From the NCBI GenBank assembly GCA_964584145.1, contig CAZOYU010000002.1, forward strand, positions 19,956-83,955: a DNA stretch of 64,000 nucleotides, written 5' to 3'. The translations under genes were made by a program, and so were the position numbers. The notes beneath the pieces were generated by a model that was not told the DNA's origin, did no database searches, and was given only the letters and a program-made list of their open reading frames with translations. Position 1 is the first letter of the stretch. Every line of letters begins with the position of its first letter. The DNA is from an uncultured Candidatus Saccharibacteria bacterium. GTDB taxonomy: Bacteria; Patescibacteriota; Saccharimonadia; Saccharimonadales; Saccharimonadaceae. Below are positions 17,590-34,364 of this stretch, one piece after another.

Positions 17590-18342
17590 ATGAGCTCAAA
17601 TAATCACCAATCTATTAATGAGCCAAATCAAGCCCCCGCACCTGATGATGTGTCGCTTCTTACTCCACCGAGTAACGACATCTCATCTGCGGATTCCGAG
17701 GTGAAGTTCAAGAGCGAAGATATTTCTAAGAAAAAACATACTCATTTCTTCCTCCATGTCAAAGAAGATGAAGATTCCGCAAAGGCCGCCCTGCGCCAAG
17801 CCAAAGCTGATAAGCGTCGCCGCACCTGGCGCCGTCATTGGCTGAAATTTTCCCTTGCTGGTGTTCTTGCACTTGCCGTTTTGATTGGCGGCGGCATCTA
17901 TATTAAGCACGTTGTTGATACTAAGGTTCAAGAAACCGCCGAAGCTGAAGCACTAGAGATTACTATTGCCGCCACATCGGCTGCCGGTGACAAAATTGTT
18001 GAAATTCGTAATTTGATGTATTCTGGTTCGCCTACCGCTCTTGACGACGTTAGAGATGCCTACGAAGACGCCATTTCTAACTCTGACGATATTATAGAGC
18101 GTCGCACTTTGGAGATCAGCTATGTTGAATATCTAACTTTTTTTGAAAAGCGGTATGCTGAAGCGCTCGAAAAACTTAATGTTTATGTTGAGCAATATGA
18201 AGATAAGGACCAATGCATAATTATTAATAGCTACATTGATATTTACATTGGCCTCGAAGACACTGAAAACATTGAAAAATATGAGGAACTTCGCGCGCAA
18301 AAATGTGCTACGGGTGAAAGCGACAATGAAGACTATCTCTAA
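17590..18342 (+). CDS. cassette protein A1: bitopic membrane protein with disordered/basic cytoplasmic head, one TM helix and an acidic helical ectodomain
   Basis: 250 aa. Motifs KSEDISKK..HFFLHVKEDEDSAKAA, basic stretch KRRRTWRRHW, TM LAGVLALAVLIGGGIYI, then a helical Asp/Glu/Tyr-rich C-terminal domain. Same architecture as A2 and A3. Confidence 0.85.
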   Translation: MSSNNHQSINEPNQAPAPDDVSLLTPPSNDISSADSEVKFKSEDISKKKHTHFFLHVKEDEDSAKAALRQAKADKRRRTWRRHWLKFSLAGVLALAVLIGGGIYIKHVVDTKVQETAEAEALEITIAATSAAGDKIVEIRNLMYSGSPTALDDVRDAYEDAISNSDDIIERRTLEISYVEYLTFFEKRYAEALEKLNVYVEQYEDKDQCIIINSYIDIYIGLEDTENIEKYEELRAQKCATGESDNEDYL

Positions 18343-21300
18343 GTTTCCGAAGGTCGTTCGAGCGTTCGTTCTTGCGACGATTATCTGTGCGCTTTTTGCG
18401 CAGAATATCTTTGCGAGTGGGTGGGGGGATTATGGGGGTGGTGCCGGTGGCGGGAGCTGCGCACCGCAAAATGCTACTCTTTGGGAAGATACCTGCTTTG
18501 GCGGTGCATGGGAATACTATGAGTATGTCGATAATTATATAGGTGAAGTTACTACTTATAGCTACGGCAGGTATGCGACAGGTATGACAATTCCCAAAGT
18601 TTGCTCTGAAATTGGCGGTTTTTATAGTTTTGGTATGATTCCTTACAATAACAGATACACCAGTGTTTACGATAGGATACAGAATGCTAACTGGGGCGTT
18701 TATCCAAGTAAACAACAAATGGGCACACTGAGGAAAGTCGGAAGTGCCGTAATACCTTTTTTGCCATATGATCAGATAAAGAACATCAAATCGAATTCGG
18801 TTGCAAAAAAGGGGTCAGGGGAATTTAGGGGTTATTCAGGAACGGGATTAAGCTATAAAGAGACTGGCGCTAAGTCTACGGGATATGCGGACCCAGATCA
18901 GGTATCAAAGGACTTTGAGAAAGCGAAAGATGCTGGTGTTATAGAGAATGGCGTTACGAAGGAAAATGTTGCCGCCTTCTGCTATGGCCCAAATATGCCG
19001 GGGGGAAGTAAAGCCAGTACTTTCGATTCCAGCTCCAAAGCGACAGTTAGTGGCGCCAGTGTAACTACTGGCTGGTCTGGTTGGGATTCGAAAACTACCA
19101 CTTCATATACTACAACTAGCTCAAGTGTCACGCTTGATTTTGAACATAAATTACGCAGAGTAGGCACTGGTGACAATATTAGTAATGCGGTGAGTGTTGG
19201 CTGGACTATTAGTAGTGCTTATAGTGCTTCTGGCACCGCCAGCTGGCCAGCCAATGTTGCCGGCGAAAAGAGTAATATTGGCGGGAAAAGCGTCACGGTT
19301 AATATAGCGCGCGGCGAAACAAAAACTGTCTGCGCCACCATTACGCACGCCAGCAAGATTAGCGGCAATACATCGAGCGGCAGCGAGAGCTCTACTGCCT
19401 GCATTACAATCACCCGCGAAGGTGGCGGTAGTAGCACTTGTGAGACTGGCAGAGGCGCATACCATAACAACATCGGCAGCACTGGCGTCAGCAAAAATGG
19501 CGGAGACTTCTCCTTTTCTGGCGATAATCCTAATGGAGATTTTAGTCGAAGTAACGAATTCGGCAATTATGTTAGTCTGACTAGTATCTGGGCCAAACCG
19601 GGCGATTCTATTCAATTTATGCATAGGATTTGTGCCGGCGCACAGAGCGTCGTTGACGATCCGAAGTCCGATCTCGGCAGTAGTTACAATACCTCTTATG
19701 ATTTTTCTGCTATTACCGCTTTCGACGGTGGTGCAAATATTGACTATCTCTTCGGTAATACGCTCGGGCAGCGCAAGAATAGCATCTCCGCCTCCGAACT
19801 AGAAGGGGAAAATTACGAGCTAGCTATTAGTTCGCCTAGTGAGGGCGCCAATTATGGCTGTAATCAAATGTCTGGCTCATCGATTATCGGTTACTATCGT
19901 ATTCCGAGCCTTTCCCATAACAACAACTGTCGGTCCGCTTCCGCAACTAGGCTTTCCGATGCCGGCAATACTATTACTCAGACTATGTCCTGGAAAGATC
20001 TTCGGGCCAAAGTGACTAGACATCATGAGAGCTGGACGGATAGCGAAGGTCATCACCATAGTCGTACCTGGTATACCACGGACGTCGATAGCACGCATAA
20101 CGGTAGTCGTACCTTTACTTCCGCCGCCAGCGTCTATGTTCCTTACAACTACATCATTAAGCCTTATATCGTGAGAACGGACGAAAGTAATTCGATTGTC
20201 ACGCTGGGCGGCGAAATCTCGACCAACGTTTATCTCCCCGTCGATAAGCGCGAAAACAAGCAAGTTGGCGGGACCTATGCCACTCAAACTAAACCGACTA
20301 AGGTTAAGGTCATTTCCTACGTTGCCAGCTCATTAAATACGCCTACTTCCGAAATTAGCTACTACGTCGACACGAATGGCGTCGCCACCAATAATCTTTG
20401 CTCAAGAATCAAGGGTAATGGGAGCGATCGGACCGTCACTAGGACTTGCAGAGTTGTCAAAGAAGAATCTGACGTAATCCTTAACGAGAACCCTACCGGC
20501 AATCTTGATGGCACCTATTCTTCTTCCGATTCCAAAAACAATAACGTCAATGCTGGCGGTTCATACTATGGAAATATTTCTGCAACCGTCCCTGACGCCG
20601 GTGATGATAACTATAATATCGGCGATCACTTCTGCATTGCTGTTGCGACTTGGCCAGGCGACAGCCATAATAGTGGCGCAGCGTCGTCCATCAATAAATC
20701 CAATCAACAGGTCGCCCTCTCCGATGATGCTGGCTCCGGCGCTCAGTGGTCCATCTCGGCGCCAACTTGTGTCACAATCGCCAAGAATCCAACTTTCAGC
20801 GTTGAAGGCTCGCAATTAGCTACTACTGGCAATGTTAGCTCGTCGGTCTTCAATCGTAGCGGCAAATATTATTATAGTTCTTGGTCTGAATATGGCATTG
20901 TTGCCGCCGGAGCTGTCAATAATACGGCTTCTGGTGCGGCAACCACCTACATTAATGCACTTGGTCTTAAATCTTTCAACAACCCCAATTACACTATTGG
21001 TCTAAAAGAGACAAATCTTGCTAGCGTTAGCGCCGGTGCTCATAATGGTGGCGGTCAAATCTTTAACTCACAGACTATGTATAATAAAAATGTTAACAAA
21101 CCGGGTGGCGCTACTAATTTGGGCATTGGTGAAGATATTCGTGACTTCTATGAATCTATTAAGAATGTCTATACACGCAAAGCAGACGATGCGTACCGGG
21201 ACGAGGCTGGCGTAAAATCCTATAACGATATATATCGCGTAAAGAATTCGTGGGGGCGGTATGTTTCGCCTACCAAATATAATGGTTATTATGATATCAC

Positions 21301-22123
21301 GCCTAATGCGGCTTACGCTTGTAAATATGACGCCCAGAAGGGTTATTACGTTGTGGCCAGTGGAGATATGGCCCGCGCTACGAAAATAGATTCTAAGACC
21401 GGAAGAGAAGTTAATACTGCGCCATACTATTGTCTAGACAATGGCGCCAAGTATCACCATGTTGTTGGCAATGCTTATATTGGTAACGCTAACGATGATA
21501 GTATCGCAACTCAGCTTCGTCTCTTTGTTGACGACCTTAAGAGCGGTGACAGTCAAGAGACTTATCGCAACCAGACTATGGTCATTCATGTCGAGGGTAA
21601 ACTCGTAATTGACGCTAATTTTATAATCGCAAACTATTATAACGGCCAAGAAGCCGACCGCTTTACAGATATTCAGCAAATTCCGCAAATTATTATCATT
21701 GCTGACAGTATTGATATTACCGCCAACGTCACTCGTATTGATGCCTGGCTTATTGCGGACATTGATAATGGTACTATTAATACCTGTGCCTACGACAATT
21801 TTAACGGTTTTCGTAGTGGGCAATATATTAATAGCGTTGGCAAGAGTTCTACGCTCACTGCGAATAAATGCAGTCGCGAGCTAGTTATTAATGGCCCAGT
21901 CACGACTAAGAATCTCATCCTTAATCGCACTGCTGGTGCTGGCACTCAGCCTTCGCGATTCAACTACAGTGGCACCTCGCTTCAAGCCAACGATGCTTAT
22001 TATGTTCAGCGCGGCGAAATCTTTAATCTCCGCCCTGATGCATATCTTTGGGGGTACTACCAAGCCCAGCGCAACGGTATCATTACGACCGTCTATTCGC
22101 ACGAATATCCAACCCGTTATTAA
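18326..22123 (+). CDS. cassette protein B1: giant secreted protein (1265 aa), unknown family
   Basis: The ATG at 18326 gives a Sec-type signal peptide (MKTISKFPKVVRAFVLATIICALFAQNIFA/SG) and overlaps the A1 stop by 17 nt. The ORF-track start 18236 lies inside A1. Shares its C-terminal ~845 aa with B2 and B3. Confidence 0.9.
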   Translation: MKTISKFPKVVRAFVLATIICALFAQNIFASGWGDYGGGAGGGSCAPQNATLWEDTCFGGAWEYYEYVDNYIGEVTTYSYGRYATGMTIPKVCSEIGGFYSFGMIPYNNRYTSVYDRIQNANWGVYPSKQQMGTLRKVGSAVIPFLPYDQIKNIKSNSVAKKGSGEFRGYSGTGLSYKETGAKSTGYADPDQVSKDFEKAKDAGVIENGVTKENVAAFCYGPNMPGGSKASTFDSSSKATVSGASVTTGWSGWDSKTTTSYTTTSSSVTLDFEHKLRRVGTGDNISNAVSVGWTISSAYSASGTASWPANVAGEKSNIGGKSVTVNIARGETKTVCATITHASKISGNTSSGSESSTACITITREGGGSSTCETGRGAYHNNIGSTGVSKNGGDFSFSGDNPNGDFSRSNEFGNYVSLTSIWAKPGDSIQFMHRICAGAQSVVDDPKSDLGSSYNTSYDFSAITAFDGGANIDYLFGNTLGQRKNSISASELEGENYELAISSPSEGANYGCNQMSGSSIIGYYRIPSLSHNNNCRSASATRLSDAGNTITQTMSWKDLRAKVTRHHESWTDSEGHHHSRTWYTTDVDSTHNGSRTFTSAASVYVPYNYIIKPYIVRTDESNSIVTLGGEISTNVYLPVDKRENKQVGGTYATQTKPTKVKVISYVASSLNTPTSEISYYVDTNGVATNNLCSRIKGNGSDRTVTRTCRVVKEESDVILNENPTGNLDGTYSSSDSKNNNVNAGGSYYGNISATVPDAGDDNYNIGDHFCIAVATWPGDSHNSGAASSINKSNQQVALSDDAGSGAQWSISAPTCVTIAKNPTFSVEGSQLATTGNVSSSVFNRSGKYYYSSWSEYGIVAAGAVNNTASGAATTYINALGLKSFNNPNYTIGLKETNLASVSAGAHNGGGQIFNSQTMYNKNVNKPGGATNLGIGEDIRDFYESIKNVYTRKADDAYRDEAGVKSYNDIYRVKNSWGRYVSPTKYNGYYDITPNAAYACKYDAQKGYYVVASGDMARATKIDSKTGREVNTAPYYCLDNGAKYHHVVGNAYIGNANDDSIATQLRLFVDDLKSGDSQETYRNQTMVIHVEGKLVIDANFIIANYYNGQEADRFTDIQQIPQIIIIADSIDITANVTRIDAWLIADIDNGTINTCAYDNFNGFRSGQYINSVGKSSTLTANKCSRELVINGPVTTKNLILNRTAGAGTQPSRFNYSGTSLQANDAYYVQRGEIFNLRPDAYLWGYYQAQRNGIITTVYSHEYPTRY
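21557..22123 (+). repeat. paralogous C-terminal module of B1 (ETYRNQT ... EYPTRY)
   Basis: FTDIQQIPQIIIIADSIDITANVTRIDAWLIA ... QRGEIFNLRPDAYLWGYYQAQRNGIITTVYSHEYPTRY. Near-identical blocks occur in B2 and B3. Confidence 0.9.
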
Positions 22124-22148
22124 AAAATCACGAAATTTTGCTAAATAG

Positions 22149-22157
22149 TGCTAGTAT
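22149..22157 (+). promoter_or_regulatory. extended -10 (TGcTAGTAT) 6 nt upstream of the A2 ATG
   Basis: agTGcTAGTATataaacATG. No SD sequence and no terminator hairpin in the 40-nt B1-A2 spacer. Confidence 0.4.
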
Positions 22158-22163
22158 ATAAAC

Positions 22164-23249
22164 ATGAGCGAAAACGACTCAAGGCTTTTTGGCGAAGTTG
22201 ATTTTGATCCAACTGCAGCGTCTGACTCTCCCGCGACTCCCATTACCGATTCGCCGAATATTTCTAGTGCCGCTGACGAAGAGCGAAAACAAGAGGCTGC
22301 CGTCGATGCCGCGCGGCGCCGTACTGAAACTGTCGATATTGATAGCATTCCACTTGATAAAAAAGATGTGTATTTTAAAGCTGAAGATATTAAGAAACCG
22401 ACCGACGCAAGTTATTTTGTGAATGTTGAGGGTGAAGCGGAGCGTAAACGCGACGAAGCGCGTCGCGCTCGCGAACAAGCTGAACTTAAACGGCGCGCCG
22501 CCGCCGAAGATGCACAAAAGGCTGCTGCTAAGAAAAAAGCTGCGGAGCAGGCCGCTGCCCGCAAAGCTGCTGCCGAAAAGAAGGCCGCCGCTGCGACCGA
22601 CAAGCGTGTGCTAGGCGAACTTATGCGCAAGGCTCATGCTCGCAAAAAAGAAAATCGTCGCGTGCGTTTTCGTCGCCATCGGCAAAAGCTACGCGATCGC
22701 CTATTCAAAGGTGGCAATAAATTTATCACACTCGGCGCCACTCTCGCCGCCGCGGCATTGGTTCTAACTTTTGTCGTCATTCCGCTGCAACAAGCCGACG
22801 AGCGCCGTCAAGCCGACGAGCTTGCTCGACAGCAAGCTGCGGAATATGAACGGCGAAAAGAAACTGACGAATCGTTAATCGTTGAGGCAATTATAAATGA
22901 GGCTGATGAGCGTCTTGAATCGTATGATCTGGATGGCGCAGACGTTATTTACAATAATGCACTCGACAAGGCAACAAGCGATGAGTTGCGCTCTTATATC
23001 TACTTACATCGGTCACAGAAAATCTATCGGCTCATGTATGATTTGGAGCCAGAACGGGTCTACGAGGATGCTCTGAAAGCCTATGAATATGGACAAAAAT
23101 CTTATGAGGCTGTCAGTTGGTTGGCGTGGATTTATGAGTGTCGCAACGAAGATAATAAAGCTGCCGAGCTTCAGGGGCTACTTGAGCAAATCGTAAAAGA
23201 GCAAGCGAGCGAATCCTCTGAAAATAATACTGGAGAAGGACAAGGATAG
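22164..23249 (+). CDS. cassette protein A2: bitopic membrane protein with acidic head, long Ala/Lys/Arg coiled coil, TM helix and TPR-like ectodomain
   Basis: 361 aa. MSENDSRLFGEVDFD, VDIDSIPL, YFKAEDIKK, YFVNVEGE, about 60 aa of AEQAAARKAAAEKKAAA-type sequence, TM ITLGATLAAAALVLTFVVIPL, then a helical repeat domain (ALDKATSDELRSYIYLHRSQ...ALKAYEYGQKSYEAVSWLAWIY). Confidence 0.88.
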   Translation: MSENDSRLFGEVDFDPTAASDSPATPITDSPNISSAADEERKQEAAVDAARRRTETVDIDSIPLDKKDVYFKAEDIKKPTDASYFVNVEGEAERKRDEARRAREQAELKRRAAAEDAQKAAAKKKAAEQAAARKAAAEKKAAAATDKRVLGELMRKAHARKKENRRVRFRRHRQKLRDRLFKGGNKFITLGATLAAAALVLTFVVIPLQQADERRQADELARQQAAEYERRKETDESLIVEAIINEADERLESYDLDGADVIYNNALDKATSDELRSYIYLHRSQKIYRLMYDLEPERVYEDALKAYEYGQKSYEAVSWLAWIYECRNEDNKAAELQGLLEQIVKEQASESSENNTGEGQG

Positions 23250-23255
23250 TGCAAA

Positions 23256-26200
23256 ATGACGAATAACTTTTTAAGAGTGGTTGCGGTGGTCGCAACGATA
23301 ACTATATGCAGTCTTTTTCTGTGGACTGATAATGCTAATGCTGCAAGGACAAGCTGTGATAGTAGTAAAATATTTATCAATACAAGTTTGATTGCAAACT
23401 CGATTACGGACGCGAGCATTCAAGATATTGGCGCACTCGATGGTACCAGAGACTCGTCTATTGTTGGCACGGGCGCATGGGCGTGCGCTGAAACTAGCCG
23501 GGGAATTTTCTTTATTGCCGATAGTGTTGACCATGATGTGAATACCGGTAAATATATTATCAATCTTGATGTGAAAGTTAATCCAGAAAGTACGCGAAAC
23601 ACCGCGATTGCCATGGGCATGATTAACTATAAGCAAGAATCCGTAATCGATCAAAACGTTTATGCTATAAATATAAAATATTGTACCCAGGATTTTGAAT
23701 ATAGCTTCGTCTATGGTAAAGGCTATGATAACGTTGAATGTCCGGACGGGAGAGATGATGCGGGTGGCATAATAAATCAATATGGCTCAATTGTGCAGCG
23801 ACAAGGTGCCAATGATAATGTCTCAAGCGGGGCGTATGCCTATTGGTCGGAGCCTAAATATACATCCTCAACAATAAATGTTGATGGAACCGTTTTGAGT
23901 GCTAAATTAAATAATACTACTTTTAAACACGATAATGTCGTGAGGACTATTAATAATGGCAACACTTACGTAATAAAGTTATGGCAATGGCGCTGTTGGT
24001 CCTATGACATGTATAATTATAATAAATATAATAAAGATGCTTGCGCATCGAACCCGATTCTATTGGCAGTCGATATGAGTTGGAGTACGACTTTTGCCGG
24101 TAAGGTGGATAATATTAACGTCTCGGGCGCGAGCTATAATTCTTCTGACGGTAAATATTATACCGATAATGACGAGATTGATATTAAATATAACTATTAT
24201 CTTGCGAGAAATAATAATGGGCCAGACAAATCAGTGCAGGGGGGGTATACTACATATATATCATCCGGTGATGGCGCAAATGGCAATGTGAAATTATCAA
24301 AAAATTCTGGTTGGGCATGGGTGGCTTCTAGGACGGAGAGTGGACGTTCATTGAGTTATGGCGATAATACAATCTGCGGTAGAATTGGCTATTTTGTTAC
24401 AGTTAGTAGTGAAGGTGGCGGTAAAAATAAAGATTGGACCGAATCGTCAAAGTGTATTACTGTTCATAAATACAGTTGGTATGAATTTGAAGGTCAAGTC
24501 GTTCCATATGTTAATGATGTCTCAAAATCGAGCGGTAGCACCGTCTGGATTGACGGCAATTCTGCGAAGCTCAAGTTTGTACACCAACTTAAACGCACTG
24601 GCAGTGCCCAGACTCGCTACGGTACCAGCAAAAGCTCCAACTTGTCCAGTATTTTTAGTATTCAAAATTGGTATGGTACTTCTTCGTTAACTAACAATAA
24701 TAGTTGGCAGACGCAGAAAACTAGTGGCGATTCTGATTCTACTGTGAATATTGCTAAAAGCGATAGCGGATCTACCTATTGTCAATATCTGAAGTACTAT
24801 AAAACGGTACGCGATGATAGTAAAGATTTTAGAAACCAAGAAGAAAAGAGCGCCTGTGTCACCCTCAAACGTTATAAAACCAATTTTACTGGTAAGACTA
24901 CGGTTACTGTCAATGGCAAGGAATATAGTGATGGTGACACGATTACCGTTGAGAGTTCCGATGGTAAAATACCTGTGACCGTGCCGGTTGTCTTTAAGCA
25001 TACTGTTACGCGCAACTCTGAAAGCACGCCGCCATCCGCGCCAAGCAATAAAAAATCTAGTATCGCGATCTCGACTTCTGGCACTTCTGGCTGTCGTTCT
25101 GGCGATCCTTGCGGAACCAATACTAGTGCCGAGGATACCGACGAGCTCGCTTCTGGCGCCTCCTATACAAAGACACAGTCCATCAATACCAAAGTTTATC
25201 CAGACCAGACTATTAAAATCTGTCAACAAATGACCTACAAGAATCAAATTTGGGGCAGTAGCGAAAGCACTGCAACTGCCGACCAGGTCTGCGTTACGCT
25301 CAAGATGGATAAGGCGCTCTGCTCGGATAATACTCAATTTGGTATTCACGACGGTCAAAACCTCGGCTCGCTCAGTATTAGTAAAAATGTTAATAATAGC
25401 GACAGTAATACCGTCGTCAAATCTGGCGCCAAGAATACTGGCAGTACCGAAATAACAATGTGGGCTAAACCGGGTGACAATATCAGCTTCACGCACGATT
25501 CCTGTGCCGCCGCCGACTTGCCGAACCAGTTCCATAATAATGGCAAGACTACCACCTATAACGTCTCCGCCGGCCGCTCTAGCTCCTCCGGTTCGCTCGA
25601 CGCGACGGGTTATCTTTTTGGCAATAGTATCGGCTCCGAGCCATATACTAGCTCTTCTGCCACTATCGCTACTACCAACGCCAATTCCGGCACTGGACCA
25701 TTCAAGAGTGGCCAATATGCCGCGACTTATAAATCGCCAAGTACTAAATCCGACACCGACTATACTTGTACGACCGACTATTATGGTAATAGTCATCAAT
25801 CGAAAACTAATTATTATCAAATTACTTCTGATGTCGCCAAGACCAGTACGCTCACTAGCGCCCGCTGCAATTCTTACGTGAAAACTATTAATAATTCTAC
25901 GGACTATGCGATTGGCTCCAACGTCGGCACCTCTTTCTCGCAAACGCTTTCTTGGACCGACCTCTGGATTAGCAATGATTCTGTCGACAGTAGTCACAAC
26001 GGCTCTAAGACTGCCAGTATTAAAGGTACCGTTAGCGTGCCATACAATTACTACCTCTATCCGTATGTCGGCAATAATAGCACTAGCACTACTCAGACCG
26101 TCACTCCAGGGGCAAGCCTGAAAGCTAATGTTTACTTACCTGTCATGCAGCGCGAGAATAAGCAAGTTGGCGAAACTTATGCCACGCACACTAAGCCAAC

Positions 26201-28169
26201 CACTATTCGTGTCGTTTCTTTCATTATGCGTAGCGGTAGTCCGGCCAGCGACATTTCCTATACTAACGGCACCGAAACGCTTAACTATTCCAATATTTGT
26301 CGAATTGCCGCAGGTGGCAATAGTACGCTCAGTTGCACTATTCTCAATAACGGCGAAACGGATAACACTTACGAAAAACGCTATGTCTTAAATGCCTCGA
26401 CCAAAGACCAGCTAGGCGGCACGCTGAACGACACTAGCTTGATTACTTCTAGTGTCGCTGATACTAACGATAGCAATATTGTCTTGTCGCGTTCTGGATC
26501 AGTCGTGATGAATAGTGTTTCTGTTGATGTGCCGGAAACCACTATCAATAATCAGCAGGGCAGCCTTCGTCTTGGTGATAAGGTTTGTATCGCGGTTGCG
26601 GCTTGGCCAAGCGACAGCCATAACCTCGGCGCTGCTACCTCCGTCGACAGCACTAACCAATCTGTCGCGCTGACTAGCTCTGGCTCCGGCTCGCAATGGG
26701 TCGTTTCTGTGCCATACTGTTCGACGGTCGCCAAAACACCAAGCTTTAGCGTAGAAGGCTCGCAGCTTTCCGTTTCCGGCGATGTTACGACTTCTAATGT
26801 AACTCACAACGGTCGTCGCTACGGTTCATGGACAGAATATGGTTTGCTCGCTGGTGGCACAGTTACGAATATGACTTCAGGCGCTGCTACCGCTTATATT
26901 GATGCTCAATCGCTCGTTGTAACTAGTGGCACGGAATATGTTCTTAAATATAGCGCCGCTAACCGCACCGCTAGCGCTACTAAAGCAGGCGCCAATAGTA
27001 AAACGGCTAGTGTTTGCCTTTATAATTCGCAGACTTATCTCAAAGATTACGATTGTAATAATGCAGGTGGTGCGTCTACGATCGTGACCGAAGATAGTAT
27101 CAACGATATTCTTGAACGTATCCGCGATGTTTATACCCGCAAGAATAGTACTAGCAATTATCATGAAGAAGCGGGCGTCAAACGCATTAATGACCTTCAA
27201 TATGCTTGGGACTACGACGGCTCTAGGACTGATATCAAGATTGATGTTAATGGTAAATCTTACTACGACCTCTCGCCGCGCAATGCTTATGCTTGTGAAT
27301 ATAGCGAAGACCTCGGCTACTATGTCCCGAACAGCAAAGATGCCGAGCGTGCTATTACTACCGACGGCAAGAAAACTGCGCCATTTTACTGCCTCTCTAA
27401 CGGTGCCCATTATTACTATGTCGAAGGTGATGCCTATATTGGCGCGCAGAGCGATAGTATCTATGGTCAGTACCTCAACTTTGTTGATGACCTTACTGGT
27501 AGCTCCGATCAAGAAACTTATCGCAACCAGACCATGGTTGTACACGCTACTGGTACGCTCGTGATTGACACCAATCTTATTGTCGATAGTTACTATTCGG
27601 CTTACAACGGCTATCACCGCGTCGATCTCTTTACGGATATTCAGCAGATTCCGCAGATTATCATTATCGCCGACAAGATTCAAATCACCTCTAGCGTGTC
27701 CCGTATTGATGCTTGGCTAGTCGCGGATGGGCTCGACAGCGGCAATGGCGAGATTAATACCTGCGCCTACGAAAACTTTAATGCCTTTAAGCGCGGCGAA
27801 TATATCAAACAGGCGGGCAACGGTAGTCTCTTAAGCGCCAAGAATTGTGACCGCACGCTCATGTTTAATGGCCCAGTTTTCGCTAAGAGTATTATTCTGA
27901 ATCGCACTGCTGGTGGCGGTACTAAGGTGCTTGGCGCAGCCGAGCAATGGAATAGCTCTAGCGGTGGCGGTCATGGTCGCTATGACTGGTGGTATGGCCA
28001 TGTTCAGCAGAGTTCTGGCCAAACGCTCGCCATTGACGCAACCACTTATGCTCAGCGTGGCGAAATCTTCAACCTTCGTGCTGACACTTATCTTTGGGCC
28101 TACTATCAAGCTCAACGTAACGGCATTCTTACGACCGTCTTCACCAAAGAATTGCCAACGCGTTATTAG
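23256..28169 (+). CDS. cassette protein B2: giant secreted protein (1637 aa), unknown family
   Basis: Signal peptide MTNNFLRVVAVVATITICSLFLWTDNANA/A. Starts 6 nt after the A2 stop, with a GGAGAAGGA SD-like site inside the A2 3' end. N-domain shared with B3, three ~100-aa Cys-bracketed modules, then the common core. Confidence 0.92.
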   Translation: MTNNFLRVVAVVATITICSLFLWTDNANAARTSCDSSKIFINTSLIANSITDASIQDIGALDGTRDSSIVGTGAWACAETSRGIFFIADSVDHDVNTGKYIINLDVKVNPESTRNTAIAMGMINYKQESVIDQNVYAINIKYCTQDFEYSFVYGKGYDNVECPDGRDDAGGIINQYGSIVQRQGANDNVSSGAYAYWSEPKYTSSTINVDGTVLSAKLNNTTFKHDNVVRTINNGNTYVIKLWQWRCWSYDMYNYNKYNKDACASNPILLAVDMSWSTTFAGKVDNINVSGASYNSSDGKYYTDNDEIDIKYNYYLARNNNGPDKSVQGGYTTYISSGDGANGNVKLSKNSGWAWVASRTESGRSLSYGDNTICGRIGYFVTVSSEGGGKNKDWTESSKCITVHKYSWYEFEGQVVPYVNDVSKSSGSTVWIDGNSAKLKFVHQLKRTGSAQTRYGTSKSSNLSSIFSIQNWYGTSSLTNNNSWQTQKTSGDSDSTVNIAKSDSGSTYCQYLKYYKTVRDDSKDFRNQEEKSACVTLKRYKTNFTGKTTVTVNGKEYSDGDTITVESSDGKIPVTVPVVFKHTVTRNSESTPPSAPSNKKSSIAISTSGTSGCRSGDPCGTNTSAEDTDELASGASYTKTQSINTKVYPDQTIKICQQMTYKNQIWGSSESTATADQVCVTLKMDKALCSDNTQFGIHDGQNLGSLSISKNVNNSDSNTVVKSGAKNTGSTEITMWAKPGDNISFTHDSCAAADLPNQFHNNGKTTTYNVSAGRSSSSGSLDATGYLFGNSIGSEPYTSSSATIATTNANSGTGPFKSGQYAATYKSPSTKSDTDYTCTTDYYGNSHQSKTNYYQITSDVAKTSTLTSARCNSYVKTINNSTDYAIGSNVGTSFSQTLSWTDLWISNDSVDSSHNGSKTASIKGTVSVPYNYYLYPYVGNNSTSTTQTVTPGASLKANVYLPVMQRENKQVGETYATHTKPTTIRVVSFIMRSGSPASDISYTNGTETLNYSNICRIAAGGNSTLSCTILNNGETDNTYEKRYVLNASTKDQLGGTLNDTSLITSSVADTNDSNIVLSRSGSVVMNSVSVDVPETTINNQQGSLRLGDKVCIAVAAWPSDSHNLGAATSVDSTNQSVALTSSGSGSQWVVSVPYCSTVAKTPSFSVEGSQLSVSGDVTTSNVTHNGRRYGSWTEYGLLAGGTVTNMTSGAATAYIDAQSLVVTSGTEYVLKYSAANRTASATKAGANSKTASVCLYNSQTYLKDYDCNNAGGASTIVTEDSINDILERIRDVYTRKNSTSNYHEEAGVKRINDLQYAWDYDGSRTDIKIDVNGKSYYDLSPRNAYACEYSEDLGYYVPNSKDAERAITTDGKKTAPFYCLSNGAHYYYVEGDAYIGAQSDSIYGQYLNFVDDLTGSSDQETYRNQTMVVHATGTLVIDTNLIVDSYYSAYNGYHRVDLFTDIQQIPQIIIIADKIQITSSVSRIDAWLVADGLDSGNGEINTCAYENFNAFKRGEYIKQAGNGSLLSAKNCDRTLMFNGPVFAKSIILNRTAGGGTKVLGAAEQWNSSSGGGHGRYDWWYGHVQQSSGQTLAIDATTYAQRGEIFNLRADTYLWAYYQAQRNGILTTVFTKELPTRY
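27513..28169 (+). repeat. paralogous C-terminal module of B2 (ETYRNQT ... ELPTRY)
   Basis: FTDIQQIPQIIIIADKIQITSSVSRIDAWLVA ... QRGEIFNLRADTYLWAYYQAQRNGILTTVFTKELPTRY. Confidence 0.9.
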
Positions 28170-28260: not shown

Positions 28261-29052
28261 ATGAGCGCCAATGATTCTCGGCCTTTTGGCGAGGTGAATC
28301 CAGATTCTTCCACAGATTCCTCTGCGGATTCTCCACATTTTGTTTCCCCGAATATTACTGATGCTGCCGAAGAGGAGCAAAAGGCGCAGGCGCAAGCCGC
28401 CGCCGAGCAGAGGCAAGCCGAAACTGTGAATATTGATGGTGTTCCGATTGCTGATCAGGATATTCAATACAAAACGCGCGATATTGTTGCTAAGAAAGCT
28501 GATGCGAAATATTTCGTGAATGTTAAGGAAGAGGAGGATGCTGCGAAAGCGCAGGCGCATCAAGCTAAAGCGGCTCAGCACAAAACTCGTTGGCGTCGCT
28601 ATGGCCGCCCAATTTTGGTTGTCGCTATTGTTCTTATTCTCGCTGCTGCTGGCGGTTTTGTCGCAAGATATTTTCTCGATCGGCAGGACGAAGAGGCAAA
28701 AGCGGCTGTTGAGGAATTGCTCTATGAAGCGGCTGATTGTTTAGAGGCGTCCAATCTCGATTGTGCGAATGAATACTATGAGAAGGCGCTCAGTCGTGCG
28801 GCGACGGATGAAGAGCGTTCGTTTGTCTATCTTCATTACTCTCAGTCCCTCGATGGGCTTATGCGTGATCAAGAATCAAATCGAATATATGAGTATGCGC
28901 TCAAGGCCTATGAGTTGAATCCTAATGACCGCAGTATAGTTTGGTGGCTTGTTGATGTTTATAATAATCGCGGCGAGGAAGATAAAGCGAAGGAATTTGA
29001 AGAGAAGCTAGAAGCATTGCCGGTAGATGAAGATGAATATGGAGAAGGGTGA
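28261..29052 (+). CDS. cassette protein A3: bitopic membrane protein, paralog of A2
   Basis: 263 aa. MSANDSRPFGEVNPD, VNIDGVPI, YKTRDIVAKK, YFVNVKEEED, RWRRYGRP + TM ILVVAIVLILAAAGGFV, then a TPR-like ectodomain (YYEKALSRAATDEERSFVYLHYSQ...ALKAYELNPNDRSIVWWLVDVY). Confidence 0.88.
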   Translation: MSANDSRPFGEVNPDSSTDSSADSPHFVSPNITDAAEEEQKAQAQAAAEQRQAETVNIDGVPIADQDIQYKTRDIVAKKADAKYFVNVKEEEDAAKAQAHQAKAAQHKTRWRRYGRPILVVAIVLILAAAGGFVARYFLDRQDEEAKAAVEELLYEAADCLEASNLDCANEYYEKALSRAATDEERSFVYLHYSQSLDGLMRDQESNRIYEYALKAYELNPNDRSIVWWLVDVYNNRGEEDKAKEFEEKLEALPVDEDEYGEG

Positions 29053-29053
29053 A

Positions 29054-32000
29054 ATGAAGATTAAAATAAAGACCGTTGCCTTGATTGCTATCGTTGCTAT
29101 TTTTTCTACGACGCTTTTGGGGTTTGGTAAAAATGAAGCTTATGCGAAGGCCTGGACTCTGTCTAGATCTAACGATAGGGGTAATTGTCTAACTGGCGGT
29201 GGCCGTATTGATGTTGTTTCTAAAGCGAAGAAAAACGGCAAAACAGTAATCAGAGATATTGGTGACTTGGGCAATTTTGGTCAATTGGGTAATGAGAATA
29301 AATACGATGAATATAGTGGCGGTTGGGCATGCGCACGATGGTACGAAACGGGGAATATGTGGCATGGAATTATGTTCATAGCTAGCAGTGTCGAGGAGAC
29401 CGGAAGCGGGAATAATAAACAGTACAAAATCAACGTCGATGTCAGTGTTAATTTGAAAAGTAGCAATAACACGGCAATTGCTATGGGCATGGTTCATACT
29501 GGTAGCAATGCAACGAATAAGGCTATAAATATCGAGTATTGTACGCATTATTATGCTAATACAGGGTGGTGCACGGATAAGACTAAAGGTGCAGATGGTA
29601 TTATATCTAGTTACGACAAAACCGTGCTTCGGCAGAACTCACGCAACCGGCCAACTAGTAGCTATAGTTACTGGACCCCGCCAATTCACGCGTTAGCGAC
29701 CAGTTCGGAGCAATCATTTATAACAATTGATGGTCCAAGGCTTGCTGAAAAAATGCAAGAAACGGAGTTTGCTACAAAGAACGTTAAATATTTAGATGAC
29801 GGTTATACCGCAATCGTGCTTTATCAATACCGCTGCTGGTCGAAGAATGGTGGCACTGGAGAATGTGGCGTAAGTCCGATAGTTTTAATATTGGACACTA
29901 GCGGTACGACTGATGATCCTCCAAGCTCAACTTCTTGCGACTCCACGAACTCATATAGCAATAGCGGTAAATCCGGCGTCCGTAAAAACGGTGGCAGCAT
30001 CGCTTATACGAATAATAATTCTGGCACAGTTAGTACTTGGGCGAAACCAGGAGATTCTATTCAATTTACGCACACAACTTGTGCTGCCGCCCAAAAGCTT
30101 ATTGATGACAATCAGGCGTATCTGGGTTCTTATGATTCTAACTATACCGTTTCTGCAAGTACCACCAACGGCACCAATGGCAGAGGCTATATATTTGGTA
30201 ACGACTTGAGCGGTAACTCGTCCGCTAGTATCCCAAGTTCCACGCTAAAGAATAATGAGTATGCTTATACTGCGAATTCGCCGAGCGATGACGCTGGATC
30301 TACATATAGCTGCGATGGTGTTTACGATGGTTTCATATCGGGCCATTATCAGATTCCGGATTTGAATATTAGGAGTGACAAATGTGGGGCATCTAGGAAA
30401 ACTGTTGCGTCTGATGCTGGCAATACAATTACGCAAACATTAGCATGGCGCGACTTCGACATTAAATGGCAGACTATCTATCATGACGCCGAAATAGATG
30501 AGGCGGGCAACGTTATTAAGCCGAGAACATCTGAAAATATCCCTTATGTAAATAGTTCTACCGACTACTCCACTAGCGCCAGCGTCTATATTCCATACAA
30601 CTACATTCTCAAGCCCTATATTGAAGGAAATAAAAATGACACAGGGGATAAAAGCCAAACCGCTACCATCGGTGGCAAATACGACGTTACTGCTTATGTT
30701 CCCGTTGATGTTCGTAAAAATAAACAAGTTGGTGATACTTATGCTACTAGCACGAAAGATACCAAAATTAAAATTGTGTCGTTCGTATTGGATTCTAGTA
30801 GCCAGCCAACCAGTAGCGTTACTTATCACGCTAATAATGGCGATGCGGGGGCGAGCAGTATTTGTAGATACGCCGCTGCCAGCGGAAATGTTAAGCATTG
30901 TGCAAATATCGCCGATGAGACTATTACGCTTAACCAAAATACTTCCGGTAATCTCAGCGGCACGCTAGGCAATGAAGCTTCGATTAGTGAGGGTGGTTCT
31001 AAGCTTGTTCTTAATGACGGCATCGAGGCTTCTGTACCAAAAAATAACATCAGTCTCGGCGATAAAATTTGTGTCGCAGTCGCCACCTGGCCGAGCGATA
31101 GCCATAATCTTGGCGATGCTGCAACTGTCGATAGCTATGACCAGAGTGTTGCTCTCACTAATAGTGCGGGAAGTAACGCTAAATGGGCCGTCTCTGCGCC
31201 AAGCTGCGCCACCATCACGAAGCGCCCAATCTTTAGCGTCGAAAGTTCGCAACTTTCCGCTACTGGCACAATTAACTCCTCGACCTATACGCGTGATAAG
31301 CTCACCTTCAGCTCTTGGGCAGAATATAGCATTGCCACCTCTGAGGAAAATGGCGTTGAAGATACCGCTTCCGGCGCAGCTACTGCCTATATCGACGCGC
31401 TCAATCTTAATTATCGCTATAATCCTTACGAGCCTAAATACGCCATTGCTTCCAGGGAAGTTAATCTTGCCAATACGCGTGCTGGCACAAAAAGTACCAG
31501 AACCTTTACTGCGCAAACTATGCTCAATTCTGGTAATGGCAGCCCCGGTGGCGCTACCACGCTTGAGCTCGCTGAGAATATCGAAAAATTCTATACATCT
31601 ATCGAAAATATCTATACGCGCAAAGGCAAGACTAAGACTCAATCTGGTGCCGGTATTGCAAATTTCAATGACCTTAGCGAACTAAAAGGCTCCAAAAAAC
31701 TAACCGTCAAGAATAATTATTATGATCTCTCGATTGGGTCCTCGTATGCTTGCGTTTACGATGAAAATAAAGGTTATTATGTCGCCTATGATAGCGACGC
31801 TACGCTCGGCAAGGATAAAAAAGGCAACCCAACTGCGCCATATTATTGTCTAAGCAATGGCTCCAAGTATTATCATGTCGAGAATGCTAATGCTTATATT
31901 GGTGGTGGCGGCGAGAGAAATAGTGGCGGCTATACTCAATTTCGTCTTACTGTGAACGATCTTGATGGTTCTGGCGGTCAAGAAACTTTCCGCAACCAAA

Positions 32001-32536
32001 CTACGGTTATTCATGTTGAGGGTACGGTTGTAATTGATACTAACTTCGTCATTGCCTATAACTATGGTGGTAGGATGCTGGATTATTTCACTGATATTCA
32101 GCAGATTCCGCAAGTTATCATCATTGCCGACAATATCGATATTACTAACAATGTCTCGCGCATCGATGCATGGCTGATTGCTAAAAACAAGATTAATACT
32201 TGTGCCTACGATAACTATAGTGGCTTCATGAAAGGGAACTATATCAGTAGCGCGGCTAATGGCGGCCTAAACGCGAACCGCTGCAATAAAGAACTAGTTA
32301 TCAATGGCCCAGTCGTTGCTAATGAGATCACACTTAACCGTACCGCTGGCGCCGGCACAACTCCGGCCGAATACTACAGTAAAAAAGCCTCTCTCTCCGT
32401 CGAAGATGCCTATTATGCCCAACGCGGCGAAATCTTTAATCTCCGTTCCGACGCCTATCTTTGGGGTTATTATCAAGCTCAGCGTAATGGCATTTTGACT
32501 ACAGTCTATTCGAAAGAATTGCCGACCAGATATTAA
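29054..32536 (+). CDS. cassette protein B3: giant secreted protein (1160 aa), unknown family
   Basis: The ATG at 29054 lies 1 nt after the A3 stop, preceded by GGAGAAGGG. It gives signal peptide MKIKIKTVALIAIVAIFSTTLLGFGKNEAYA/K. N-domain shared with B2, followed directly by the common core. Confidence 0.9.
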   Translation: MKIKIKTVALIAIVAIFSTTLLGFGKNEAYAKAWTLSRSNDRGNCLTGGGRIDVVSKAKKNGKTVIRDIGDLGNFGQLGNENKYDEYSGGWACARWYETGNMWHGIMFIASSVEETGSGNNKQYKINVDVSVNLKSSNNTAIAMGMVHTGSNATNKAINIEYCTHYYANTGWCTDKTKGADGIISSYDKTVLRQNSRNRPTSSYSYWTPPIHALATSSEQSFITIDGPRLAEKMQETEFATKNVKYLDDGYTAIVLYQYRCWSKNGGTGECGVSPIVLILDTSGTTDDPPSSTSCDSTNSYSNSGKSGVRKNGGSIAYTNNNSGTVSTWAKPGDSIQFTHTTCAAAQKLIDDNQAYLGSYDSNYTVSASTTNGTNGRGYIFGNDLSGNSSASIPSSTLKNNEYAYTANSPSDDAGSTYSCDGVYDGFISGHYQIPDLNIRSDKCGASRKTVASDAGNTITQTLAWRDFDIKWQTIYHDAEIDEAGNVIKPRTSENIPYVNSSTDYSTSASVYIPYNYILKPYIEGNKNDTGDKSQTATIGGKYDVTAYVPVDVRKNKQVGDTYATSTKDTKIKIVSFVLDSSSQPTSSVTYHANNGDAGASSICRYAAASGNVKHCANIADETITLNQNTSGNLSGTLGNEASISEGGSKLVLNDGIEASVPKNNISLGDKICVAVATWPSDSHNLGDAATVDSYDQSVALTNSAGSNAKWAVSAPSCATITKRPIFSVESSQLSATGTINSSTYTRDKLTFSSWAEYSIATSEENGVEDTASGAATAYIDALNLNYRYNPYEPKYAIASREVNLANTRAGTKSTRTFTAQTMLNSGNGSPGGATTLELAENIEKFYTSIENIYTRKGKTKTQSGAGIANFNDLSELKGSKKLTVKNNYYDLSIGSSYACVYDENKGYYVAYDSDATLGKDKKGNPTAPYYCLSNGSKYYHVENANAYIGGGGERNSGGYTQFRLTVNDLDGSGGQETFRNQTTVIHVEGTVVIDTNFVIAYNYGGRMLDYFTDIQQIPQVIIIADNIDITNNVSRIDAWLIAKNKINTCAYDNYSGFMKGNYISSAANGGLNANRCNKELVINGPVVANEITLNRTAGAGTTPAEYYSKKASLSVEDAYYAQRGEIFNLRSDAYLWGYYQAQRNGILTTVYSKELPTRY
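31982..32536 (+). repeat. paralogous C-terminal module of B3 (ETFRNQT ... ELPTRY)
   Basis: FTDIQQIPQVIIIADNIDITNNVSRIDAWLIA ... QRGEIFNLRSDAYLWGYYQAQRNGILTTVYSKELPTRY. Confidence 0.9.
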
Positions 32537-32566
32537 AAGAGAAGTTTTAAAAATCGAAAACGTTAA

Positions 32567-32574
32567 TGTATAAT
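32567..32574 (+). promoter_or_regulatory. extended -10 (TGTATAAT) 6 nt upstream of the pseudopilin-1 ATG at 32581
   Basis: aaTGTATAATattactATGagtaaa. No SD sequence. The alternative ATG at 32566 lies inside the box itself. Confidence 0.45.
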
Positions 32575-32580
32575 ATTACT

Positions 32581-33549
32581 ATGAGTAAAAATGGTGGTAG
32601 GGACGTAGCGAGCGGCTTTACGATTATTGAAGTTATGCTTGTGCTTGCCGTGACGGGCTTTCTCTTCATTGGTATCCTTGGCGGCATGAGTGGCAGTCTC
32701 GCTCGCCAGCGCTACAAGGACGCCGTGCAGGATACTGCTGATAGTCTCCGTCGCATGTATTCTTATGTTGTTGATACGCAGGTCTATACACGCGAAAATG
32801 ACTCTGTCTGTTATGGTCTTACTTCTGATGCTATCGGAAATAGCAGTTTAATCTCTAATAGTAAAAATACTGGCCGTGGCCGCAGCGATTGTGTCGTTTA
32901 TGGCCTAGTTGCAACCATTGCCAATAGCCATATTGAATTCACTGAATTGGTTGGCAAAGAATACGAGGTCGTGCGTGAGGAAGTTGCCGATAAAGACAAA
33001 AAAGATACCGACACTATGAAAGACATTGAAGTCCTACAACTCGCTGGCGCAAATAATGTCGTCGCATCCGCTAAGCAGAATGGTACTTGCTCGAATATTG
33101 GCCTAGTTAATCTGCTCGAGTCTTCTGATTCACGCTGGGGTACGCGCATTCTCGATACGGATGGCAATGAACTCGCCACCACGATTCTAATCTTCCGTTC
33201 GCCGCAGTCTGGCGTCATCCGCACTTATGTTATGGACGGTACACCGAAGAATGGCGACAATATTATCCGCTATGACGAATTTAGCGAAGAGACGCATGAC
33301 TGCACTGAAAAGAATATACTCGACACTTATGGTATCAATGAATACATTGGTAAATATGAGACCGAAGGCGACGAGAAGGTTTTCAAAAGCAATTTTACCG
33401 AAAAAGAATTGAAGATCTGTATTAGTAGTGGTGATACGGGCGTGTATGACGGCCGCATGCGTATGATTAAGATCGCGAAAGGTGGTCGCAGCTCATCTGC
33501 TATCGCGCTGATTGACATGGATGACGAGGACGCAAACGAATGCAACTAG
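32581..33549 (+). CDS. type IV prepilin-like protein 1 (oversized, 322 aa)
   Basis: Class III signal MSKNGGRDVASG/FTIIEVMLVLAVTGFLFIGIL: Gly at -1, Phe at +1, Glu at +5, then a hydrophobic helix. Confidence 0.85.
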   Translation: MSKNGGRDVASGFTIIEVMLVLAVTGFLFIGILGGMSGSLARQRYKDAVQDTADSLRRMYSYVVDTQVYTRENDSVCYGLTSDAIGNSSLISNSKNTGRGRSDCVVYGLVATIANSHIEFTELVGKEYEVVREEVADKDKKDTDTMKDIEVLQLAGANNVVASAKQNGTCSNIGLVNLLESSDSRWGTRILDTDGNELATTILIFRSPQSGVIRTYVMDGTPKNGDNIIRYDEFSEETHDCTEKNILDTYGINEYIGKYETEGDEKVFKSNFTEKELKICISSGDTGVYDGRMRMIKIAKGGRSSSAIALIDMDDEDANECN

Positions 33550-34364
33550 ATAAAGTTAAGCCAGGTGATACGATTATTGAAGTAGCTCTTTCGATGGCTG
33601 TCTTTGGAGCCGTGGCGCTGTTCTCGGTCGAAATGATGAATAGTGGTCTCAATAAAATTCAACGCACGCTCGAAACTACTATGGCGCGCACTGCGATCGA
33701 TTCGCAGACCGAAGCGTTGCGTTTTATTCATAATAACTATCTCGCTGAGCGCAACTTCGCTGATAGCACGGCGCAATTTCAGCGTATCTGGGAGCAACTC
33801 AAGGGAGCATCGCGCAATCCTCGTGACATCAAAGCTGGCGATACTGTAAACAGCTTCGATGTTAATACTTACACTTCTTGTGACGAGATTTATAGTAATG
33901 CAGGCCAGATTAAACAATATAAAGCATTTGTGATTAATCCGCGCTACATTGTGCCAGACTACGGTGATAACGTTAGTTACAATGGTGTTAAATATACTTA
34001 TGGAAATGGTTCTAACTCGGACGATACCGGCATTCTCAAGAATATAATTATTGGCGGCAATGATACCGAAGAACAGAGCAGCTTGATGACTTATAGTCAG
34101 ATTTATCCGCGAATTATCTATAGCGCCAAAAAAGGCGATAGTAAAAATACCGACAATAGTTCCCTTAAAGAAGCCAACATCTACCAAGTGGCCGAAAGTG
34201 TGCAAGGTCTTTGGGACATCGTTGTCTATAGTAATGAACGCAATAAAGATCGTTCCGAATATTTTGATTTTTACATTAACACTTGTTGGAATGCTGCTGG
34301 TACACACGTTCCGTCGACCATTACGACTATCGTCCGCCTATATAACCCAGAGGTGATTGAATAA
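33540..34364 (+). CDS. type IV pilin-like protein 2 (274 aa)
   Basis: MQLDKVKPG/DTIIEVALSMAVFGAVALF: Gly at -1, Glu at +5, hydrophobic helix. Overlaps the end of gene 1 by 10 nt. Confidence 0.75.
   Translation: MQLDKVKPGDTIIEVALSMAVFGAVALFSVEMMNSGLNKIQRTLETTMARTAIDSQTEALRFIHNNYLAERNFADSTAQFQRIWEQLKGASRNPRDIKAGDTVNSFDVNTYTSCDEIYSNAGQIKQYKAFVINPRYIVPDYGDNVSYNGVKYTYGNGSNSDDTGILKNIIIGGNDTEEQSSLMTYSQIYPRIIYSAKKGDSKNTDNSSLKEANIYQVAESVQGLWDIVVYSNERNKDRSEYFDFYINTCWNAAGTHVPSTITTIVRLYNPEVIE

Follow-up and report, generated by a model that had tools for sequence, protein, structure and literature searches.

The pneumococcal proteins PspA and PspC and the streptococcal M protein, all from transformable bacteria, carry deeply diverged distal N-terminal alleles on a conserved anchor part, and these alleles are moved by homologous recombination and are older than the DNA that flanks them. 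In phage tail-fibre tips with their chaperones, and in toxins with their immunity proteins, a variable module moves together with an adjacent partner between conserved flanks. The type IVa pili (T4P) of Pseudomonas, Neisseria, Kingella and Myxococcus have PilY1/PilC, large secreted proteins whose genes adjoin minor-pilin genes and in which the N-terminal part varies between strains and presumably sets the specificity of adhesion, and the C-terminal part is conserved. The way in which Saccharibacteria and other ultrasmall epibionts select their bacterial hosts has yet to be explained, and two lectin-like minor pilins are the only proteins linked to host binding to date. These are PilX1 and PilX2 of Nanosynbacter lyticus, pilins that carry a jelly-roll or beta-propeller domain at the C-terminus and whose genes lie in or beside minor-pilin operons (bioRxiv 10.64898/2026.10.06.756255; PMC11623550). 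The locus described here lies in a 64,000-nucleotide stretch, referred to as the window, of contig CAZOYU010000002.1 from an uncultured Candidatus Saccharibacteria bacterium (assembly GCA_964584145.1). It consists of RNase Y followed by three gene pairs, all on the forward strand, in each of which a bitopic membrane protein (A1, A2 and A3) is followed by a giant secreted protein (B1, B2 and B3) with a signal peptide, an N-terminal region called here the head, and a conserved core of about 870 amino acids (aa) that ends in PTRY. As far as sequence comparison goes, and with moderate confidence, the locus is best explained by the exchange of old head cassettes, the heads being the candidate host-recognition end of the giants.

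Other assemblies of the same species were located through exact-sequence clusters, and the population argument rests on two species and a handful of strains. Cassette 1 (17900..19050) takes in the 3′ half of A1 (17590..18342), which encodes its ectodomain, together with the signal peptide and head of B1 (18326..22123; 1265 aa counted from the ATG), and has two alleles in the species. When compared with strain contig L019, the DNA is 41–82% identical inside the block at about 17900–19050 (75–82% in the 3′ half of A1 and 41–62% in the B1 head) and 96–100% identical outside it. Cassette 2 (22840..24850), also with two alleles, takes in the ectodomain of A2 (22164..23249) and aa 1 to about 530 of B2 (23256..28169; 1637 aa), that is, the head and the Cys-bracketed modules that follow it. 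The second B2 allele, protein P0032 on contig L022, has a core 99–100% identical to that of B2 and a first stretch of about 525 aa that is only 22–60% identical; at the DNA level identity is 38–68% inside about 22840–24850 and 97–100% outside. The two head alleles that B1 and B2 each have in the species are thus 45–47% identical on cores that are 99–100% identical, and the B1 and B2 alleles combine differently on different long contigs, which amounts to independent assortment. Cassette 3 (28711..29926), with the ectodomain of A3 (28261..29052) and aa 1–300 of B3 (29027..32536; 1169 aa), is nearly invariant in the species. An assembly artefact was considered and rejected, as five contigs from NCBI, Logan and ENA carry the window alleles unchanged, and the contigs with the alternative alleles measure 43–338 kb. 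The start of B3 is called in two ways in public assemblies, at the ATG at 29027, which overlaps the A3 stop, or at the ATG at 29054, which gives a protein of 1160 aa.

The divergence inside the blocks is old and largely silent. In Nei-Gojobori estimates for the L019 block, A1 aa 100–250 have a synonymous divergence (dS) of 1.26 and a ratio of nonsynonymous to synonymous divergence (dN/dS) of 0.12, and B1 aa 30–245 a dS of 1.80 and a ratio of 0.27, with flank dS of 0–0.05. At residues that are identical between the window and L019, 30 of 49 four-fold degenerate sites differ in the block as compared with 15 of 484 in the B1 core (p = 4e-25). For the L022 block, the proportion of differing synonymous sites (pS) is 0.71–0.82, and flank dS is 0.02–0.17. 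Across the within-species cassette alleles as a whole, dN/dS is 0.12–0.27, and allele dS of 1.3–1.8 equals or exceeds the divergence of the two species, for which RNase Y gives a dS of 1.18. The boundaries are sharp, synonymous sites are saturated and dN/dS is under 0.3, which shows that old alleles are imported by homologous recombination and are not a product of fast evolution in place. Within the B2 core, at 25840–26700 and 24900–24999, identity between strains falls to 83–93% in 100-nucleotide (nt) intervals, with surroundings at 97–100%; these patches point to smaller recombination tracts in the core too.

The whole locus is syntenic in a sister species (G029, contig CAVFJY010000001.1; G029:C1:156000-175900), with RNase Y, three A/B pairs and putative minor pilins in the same arrangement. 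This contig was the sole return among genome contigs in a search with the core alignment, and two truncated loci were returned among metagenome contigs. Identity between the species is 98% for RNase Y and 88% for the putative minor pilins, and drops to about 20–45% in the cassettes. B3 and its ortholog have 17–46% identity over aa 1–300 and then jump to 96%, B2 has 19–54% up to about aa 550 and 74–96% beyond, and in A3 it is the first 150 aa that are 72–92% identical, with the rest at about 20%. Nonsynonymous divergence (dN) is 0.58–0.67 in the heads and 0.08–0.12 in the cores. As saturation at synonymous sites extends to housekeeping genes such as RNase Y, a between-species dN/dS is unreadable for the heads, and four-fold sites at identical residues, together with the within-species alleles, were used in its place; 49 of 69 such sites differ in the heads as compared with 386 of 814 in the cores (p = 2e-4).

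Trees of the two ends of the giants conflict. The core tree has clades of B2, P0032 and G029_B2, of B3, G029_B3 and P0028, and of B1 and G029_B1, each with 100/100 support. In the head tree, B2 joins P0032 and then G029_B1, and G029_B3 joins P0007, a giant from another strain contig (see below); the head data reject the first two of the core clades (approximately unbiased test, p = 0.018 and 0.0027). The domain shuffling suggested by the first-pass annotation of this DNA has therefore come out stronger than proposed, given the tree conflict, the different kinds of head on B1 and its ortholog, and the diverged head alleles on near-identical cores. Deep alleles, sharp boundaries, near-identical flanks within one species and inter-module tree conflict are all present, as in a recombining mosaic locus for surface proteins.

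Heads of two types occur in the window. The type-1 head, roughly 230 aa in size, lies at 23343..24110 in B2 (aa 30–285), where BLASTP, a 12-sequence alignment and an AlphaFold2 (AF2) model indicate a Cys-stabilised beta-sandwich, and at 29150..29926 in B3 (aa 42–300), where it is supported by BLASTP, the alignment and a hidden Markov model (HMM; E 9e-76). The domain had first been read by eye in segments at 23472–24093 and 29318–29911, which are indeed in frame in B2 and B3 and begin with GAWACAE and GGWACARW, and BLASTP aligns B2 aa 6–278 with B3 aa 14–295 at 32% identity (E 2e-27). The N-terminus of B1 is unrelated, as had also been noted: BLAST finds no match between it and the N-terminus of B2 or B3, and an hhalign comparison of the head types gives a probability of 0.3%. 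The further claim that the domain is confined to B2 and B3 and absent from B1 holds in this genome, where a profile search finds just these two copies, but not beyond it, since the sister-species ortholog of B1 carries the domain; type-1 heads are present on all three of the syntenic giants there. A two-sequence profile searched against 1.84 billion proteins returned only five clusters, with each match at the N-terminus of a protein of 1145–1682 aa, and the four clusters retrieved a second time align to the core of B3. With the B2 head as query, a word-based search returned B2 alone.

The 12-sequence alignment was made from B2, B3, the database matches and orthologs from related genomes. It has invariant positions at C5, W46-A47-C48, F57, Y71, G92, C114, C133, R153, W168, P171 and R217-C218, a nearly invariant C234, and between the invariant positions indel-rich loops with large insertions and deletions. 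An HMM of the twelve heads matches all giants tested, both in the B1/B2/B3 clade and among the relatives in genomes G012, G007 and G025, except B1 of this species. The type-1 head is thus the usual N-terminus of a genus-level giant-protein subfamily in Saccharibacteria-type genomes and is not private to B2 and B3; one distant homolog of the giants carries the name “Candidatus Saccharimonadales bacterium”. An AlphaFold2 model from an 11-sequence alignment is mainly beta with three short helices (predicted local distance difference test score, pLDDT, 75.9; predicted template modelling score, pTM, 0.79). Searched with Foldseek against the PDB and against viral predicted structures (BFVD), this model gave best E-values of 6e-3 and 4e-3, with template modelling (TM) scores of about 0.3 and nothing below 1e-3. 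The twelve heads scanned singly against Pfam-A and NCBIfam reached a best E of 0.026, below the curated threshold, and the head profile against PDB sequences reached 0.41, which is chance level. On the model, the type-1 head is an undescribed disulfide-rich, six-cysteine beta-sandwich that is probably extracellular.

B1 carries the type-2 head (18416..19105, aa 31–260), in which a Gly-rich tract is followed by C..C.GGAWEYYEY ... AFC. B1 is 63% identical to its sister-species ortholog from aa 381 to the end, and before aa 381 there is no match. By tblastn, B1 has the only type-2 head in its own genome. Elsewhere, it is found on P0009, P0010, P0011, P0034, P0035 and P0036, with P0010 and P0011 at a length of 1732–1735 aa, and the cores of the distant carriers (P0010, P0011, P0034, P0035 and P0036) are only 22–35% identical to that of B1. 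The AF2 model of the type-2 head found no Foldseek match in the PDB at E < 1e-3, which is weak evidence given its modest pLDDT of 62. The core tree places B1 within a group of giants with type-1 heads, and the simplest reading of this position is that the original head was replaced by the unrelated type-2 head in the B1 lineage of this species. The type-2 head of B1 opens with the tract GDYGGGAGGGS (window 18416–18470), which is encoded by short G runs; the tract is longer in relatives, with up to 8 Gly in P0034, and its length may vary.

The A proteins each have a charged cytoplasmic part, a single transmembrane segment with Arg/Lys ahead of it and, at the C-terminus, about 110–160 aa of helical sequence, which, going by this topology, should be extracellular. 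By sequence and hydropathy, A1 has a beta-type ectodomain (ISYVEYL..YEDKDQC..KYEELRAQKC), as do L019_A1, G029_A3 and L023_Ax, and A2 and A3 have an alpha-type ectodomain (YLHRSQ..LKAYE..W..VY), as do G029_A1 and G029_A2. The alpha and beta ectodomains look unrelated, and the beta type sits at A1 here (17900–18342, with alpha at 22840–23249 and 28711–29052) and at A3 in the sister species. A fourth A/B pair was observed in strain contig L023 (ENA ERZ27279214, 211.8 kb), at L023:9264-13705 between B1 and A2, with an insertion point corresponding to about 22123–22164 of the window. It encodes A_x (244 aa, beta-type ectodomain) and the giant P0007 (1234 aa), and the A/B array accordingly varies in copy number between three and four pairs. 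The ectodomains of G029_A3 and L023_Ax are mutual closest relatives (47%), and their partner giants G029_B3 and P0007 likewise have heads that are closest to each other (52%, support 100/99). Over ten pairs, the distances between ectodomains and those between heads are correlated (Mantel r = 0.54, p = 0.0014). Joint transfer of A ectodomain and B head is shown by these data, and their functional coupling is only suggested.

A shift in composition at the distal ends had been read from hand counts of G+C in 60-nt lines, and all four of these are exact (18/60 and 23/60 at 23881–24000, 28/60 at 27601–27660 and 32/60 at 46201–46260). Profiles of G+C and codon usage make the shift real, but only moderate, clear in B2 and marginal in B3. 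The reference was a set of 870 in-frame coding segments of 750 nt from the genome, with the background genes taken from a simple longest open reading frame (ORF) caller; it has a G+C of 0.474 (standard deviation, sd, 0.029) and a third-position G+C (GC3) of 0.494 (sd 0.05). The B2 head has a G+C of 0.397 and a GC3 of 0.376, both at the 1st percentile, followed by the B2 modules (0.409 and 0.377) and the B2 core (0.480 and 0.493). Corresponding values are 0.430 and 0.408 (about the 4th–7th percentile) for the B3 head and 0.448 and 0.428 for its core, and 0.459 and 0.409 for the B1 head and 0.460 and 0.458 for its core. The low-G+C stretch of B2, 23256–25055 (0.36–0.43), coincides with cassette 2. 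Cassette GC3 is lower than that of its own core in eight of eight alleles (three from the window, two from other strains of the species and three from the sister species), and the codon-typicality z-score, corrected for amino acids, is −3.0, −1.4 and −2.5 for the B1, B2 and B3 cassettes and −1.2, +0.3 and −0.6 for their cores. The shift is a property of the cassette pool and fits either import from lower-G+C relatives or weaker codon selection.

The exchange unit measures 1.2–2 kb and runs from just after the transmembrane segment of A through the signal peptide and head of B, extending in B2 through the Cys-bracketed modules after the head. Whole cassettes are swapped between strains and lineages by homologous recombination, with the conserved cytoplasmic head of A and the core of B, to judge from the breakpoint positions, as likely homology arms, and the cassette alleles are old, with their fold under purifying selection. 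Natural competence may supply the DNA. A 477-aa ORF, a candidate ComEC gene, lies at 13751–15184, 3 kb upstream of the array, and in two contigs of related strains the syntenic counterpart (459 aa) carries the Pfam family Competence (PF03772); a cultivated relative is reported to have natural competence and essential adhesins (PMC10633639). Taken together, these make DNA uptake from related strains plausible. The heads would then be the recognition end of the giants, either binding a variable host-envelope structure or being themselves recognised, and several old alleles may persist through diversifying or frequency-dependent selection.

Variable loops on a conserved scaffold, a position at one end of giants encoded beside pilin-like genes, and old alleles that are exchanged make up the pattern of a recognition surface. 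Among possible functions of the heads, host-envelope binding would rank first, recognition as a target second and docking to the A ectodomain third. In Southlakia, several of the envelope proteins that transposon sequencing (Tn-seq) identified as essential have glycan-binding domains (PMC10633639). A number of points weigh against the exchange of old cassettes with heads that bind the host. The B3 head is nearly invariant across nine sequences of the species, which makes the variation episodic and not continuous. Pairwise dN/dS is below 1 everywhere, no donor lineage turned up, and the low GC3 could stem from weaker codon selection instead of origin. The correlation between ectodomain and head distances drops to r = 0.21 (p = 0.09, not significant, ten pairs) in a partial Mantel test with core distance removed. 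The Foldseek searches described above gave the heads no match to any solved or viral fold, lectins and adhesins included. Finally, the T4P adhesins known from N. lyticus, PilX1 and PilX2, are minor pilins of a lectin-like kind and not giants (bioRxiv 10.64898/2026.10.06.756255), and giants of this kind go unmentioned in the literature on N. lyticus T4P adhesion.

The alternative that survives best keeps the exchange of alleles and turns the role of the heads around. They would be targets and not binders, exposed to host defences, epibiont phages or animal antibodies, and old alleles would be kept and exchanged for escape, in a variation of the antigenic type; this is possible, although unlikely. 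The population pattern of old, recombining alleles with a scaffold under purifying selection would be the same, indel-rich loops on a conserved Cys/Trp scaffold suit a target, and Saccharibacteria are indeed sensed by host Actinobacteria, which mount defences against them (bioRxiv 10.64898/2026.09.08.750141). A role as target leaves the co-exchange of the A ectodomain unexplained, however, and no recogniser is known for it; sequence data alone cannot tell a target from a binder.

The co-exchange is what a second alternative would account for, namely that each head docks to its own A protein, whose ectodomain holds or chaperones the N-terminus of B. The head would then be membrane-proximal, and its divergence would serve to avoid cross-reaction among three or four pairs. 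Each cassette does contain both an A ectodomain and a B head, the A proteins are bitopic with the variable part outside the cell, and both the matching closest relatives in the L023 and sister-species pairs and the Mantel correlation point the same way. That correlation is not significant once the cores are controlled for, though, and beta-type ectodomains occur with type-2 and type-1 heads alike. Moreover, orthogonality among paralogs does not account for alternative alleles at one position in one species, and adjacency alone can account for joint transfer, which leaves docking distinctly doubtful. An extension of the preferred reading, that of exchanged cassettes with host-binding heads, would make use of the same pairing. 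The A ectodomain and B head would form a cognate two-protein unit that sets the range of host strains, with alleles kept across species by balancing selection and spread by transformation, and this should be taken as a tentative suggestion with rather low odds.

Between faster evolution and a foreign origin, the two explanations offered by the first-pass annotation, the result is a divided one: alleles have been imported, from related lineages, but neither in-situ speed nor a source in the host or another phylum fits. Faster evolution in place, by positive selection or relaxed constraint and with no imported alleles, is highly improbable; the between-species head dN, at 5–8 times the core dN, would favour it, but it does not fit a within-species synonymous divergence of the cassettes at least 25 times that of the flanks, with sharp boundaries, dN/dS of 0.12–0.27 and conflicting trees. 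Acquisition of the heads from host Actinobacteria, another phylum or a phage is scarcely credible in spite of a composition that differs from the rest of the genome, as the exhaustive search for the N-domain ended in five clusters that are all N-termini of giants of the same kind and similar length, there are no relatives in Pfam, the PDB or viral structures, and a cassette G+C of about 0.40–0.43, below that of the genome itself, together with the lack of any non-giant homolog argues against an origin in the oral Actinobacteria, whose G+C is high.

Other known routes to variable surface proteins were considered and found unlikely. Gene conversion from silent cassettes, as with pilE/pilS in Neisseria, would draw on further copies, and the genome holds only two type-1 copies and the type-2 head of B1. 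Mutagenesis of the kind driven by diversity-generating retroelements (DGRs) would use a template repeat, and none is present in the genome for the head regions: blastn at word size 7 with the three head regions returned themselves and one 67-nt cross-match between B2 and B3, with no separate search made for a reverse transcriptase. A polymorphic toxin of the contact-dependent inhibition (CDI) type is unlikely as well, as the variable part of the giants is N-terminal, the C-terminus is the most conserved part, and Pfam and NCBIfam scans found no toxin domain.

The genome from which the window comes measures 0.796 Mb in 21 contigs and is estimated to be 97.7% complete. A search of it found no giant cores other than those of B1, B2 and B3; the three giants match no family in Pfam or NCBIfam at E ≤ 0.01, and the B3 core has only chance-level matches to PDB sequences. 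Directly downstream of B3 are three pilin-like genes (32566..35227, forward strand) with weak matches only. The first and third have a weak N-terminal methylation motif (PF07963) and the second a weak GspI match, all below curated thresholds, as are GspH and ComGE-type matches of the same genes.

For a field in which so little is tied to host binding, the locus offers a concrete and bounded candidate for strain-level host specificity, with two undescribed families of head domain on giant proteins that are exchanged as 1–2 kb cassettes. The cassette boundaries show exactly which segments should be expressed, deleted or compared in work on cultivated relatives, and the cassettes themselves can serve as a marker for following epibiont strains in metagenomes. 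If the cognate A/B recognition unit were true, the candidate phyla radiation would have its first described case of a polymorphic cassette for host specificity.

Set beside the systems named at the outset, the giants share with PilY1/PilC their large size, secretion, proximity to genes that may encode minor pilins and conserved C-terminal part behind a variable N-terminal one. They differ, at the level of sequence, in having no PilY1/PilC beta-propeller signature (Neisseria_PilC) or other Pfam domain, and in standing in three or four tandem copies, each with an upstream membrane protein whose ectodomain joins the variable unit. With PilX1 and PilX2 they share the organism group and, it would seem, the minor-pilin setting and the biological problem of host cell wall recognition, but they have a Sec-type signal peptide in place of a prepilin leader, a length of 1.2–1.6 thousand aa and heads that match no lectin fold. 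As in tail-fibre and toxin systems, a variable module moves with its partner between conserved flanks; in those systems the module is C-terminal and the partner downstream, whereas here the module is N-terminal and the partner upstream, and domain and viral-structure searches found no phage genes and no toxin domains. The likeness to PspA, PspC and M protein lies in old alleles that are moved by recombination. The cassettes differ from these in an unrelated fold, with a disulfide-rich beta-sandwich in place of a coiled coil, and in a tract that covers part of the neighbouring gene, and the selective agent, which is vertebrate immunity for PspA, PspC and M protein, is for the cassettes probably the bacterial host.

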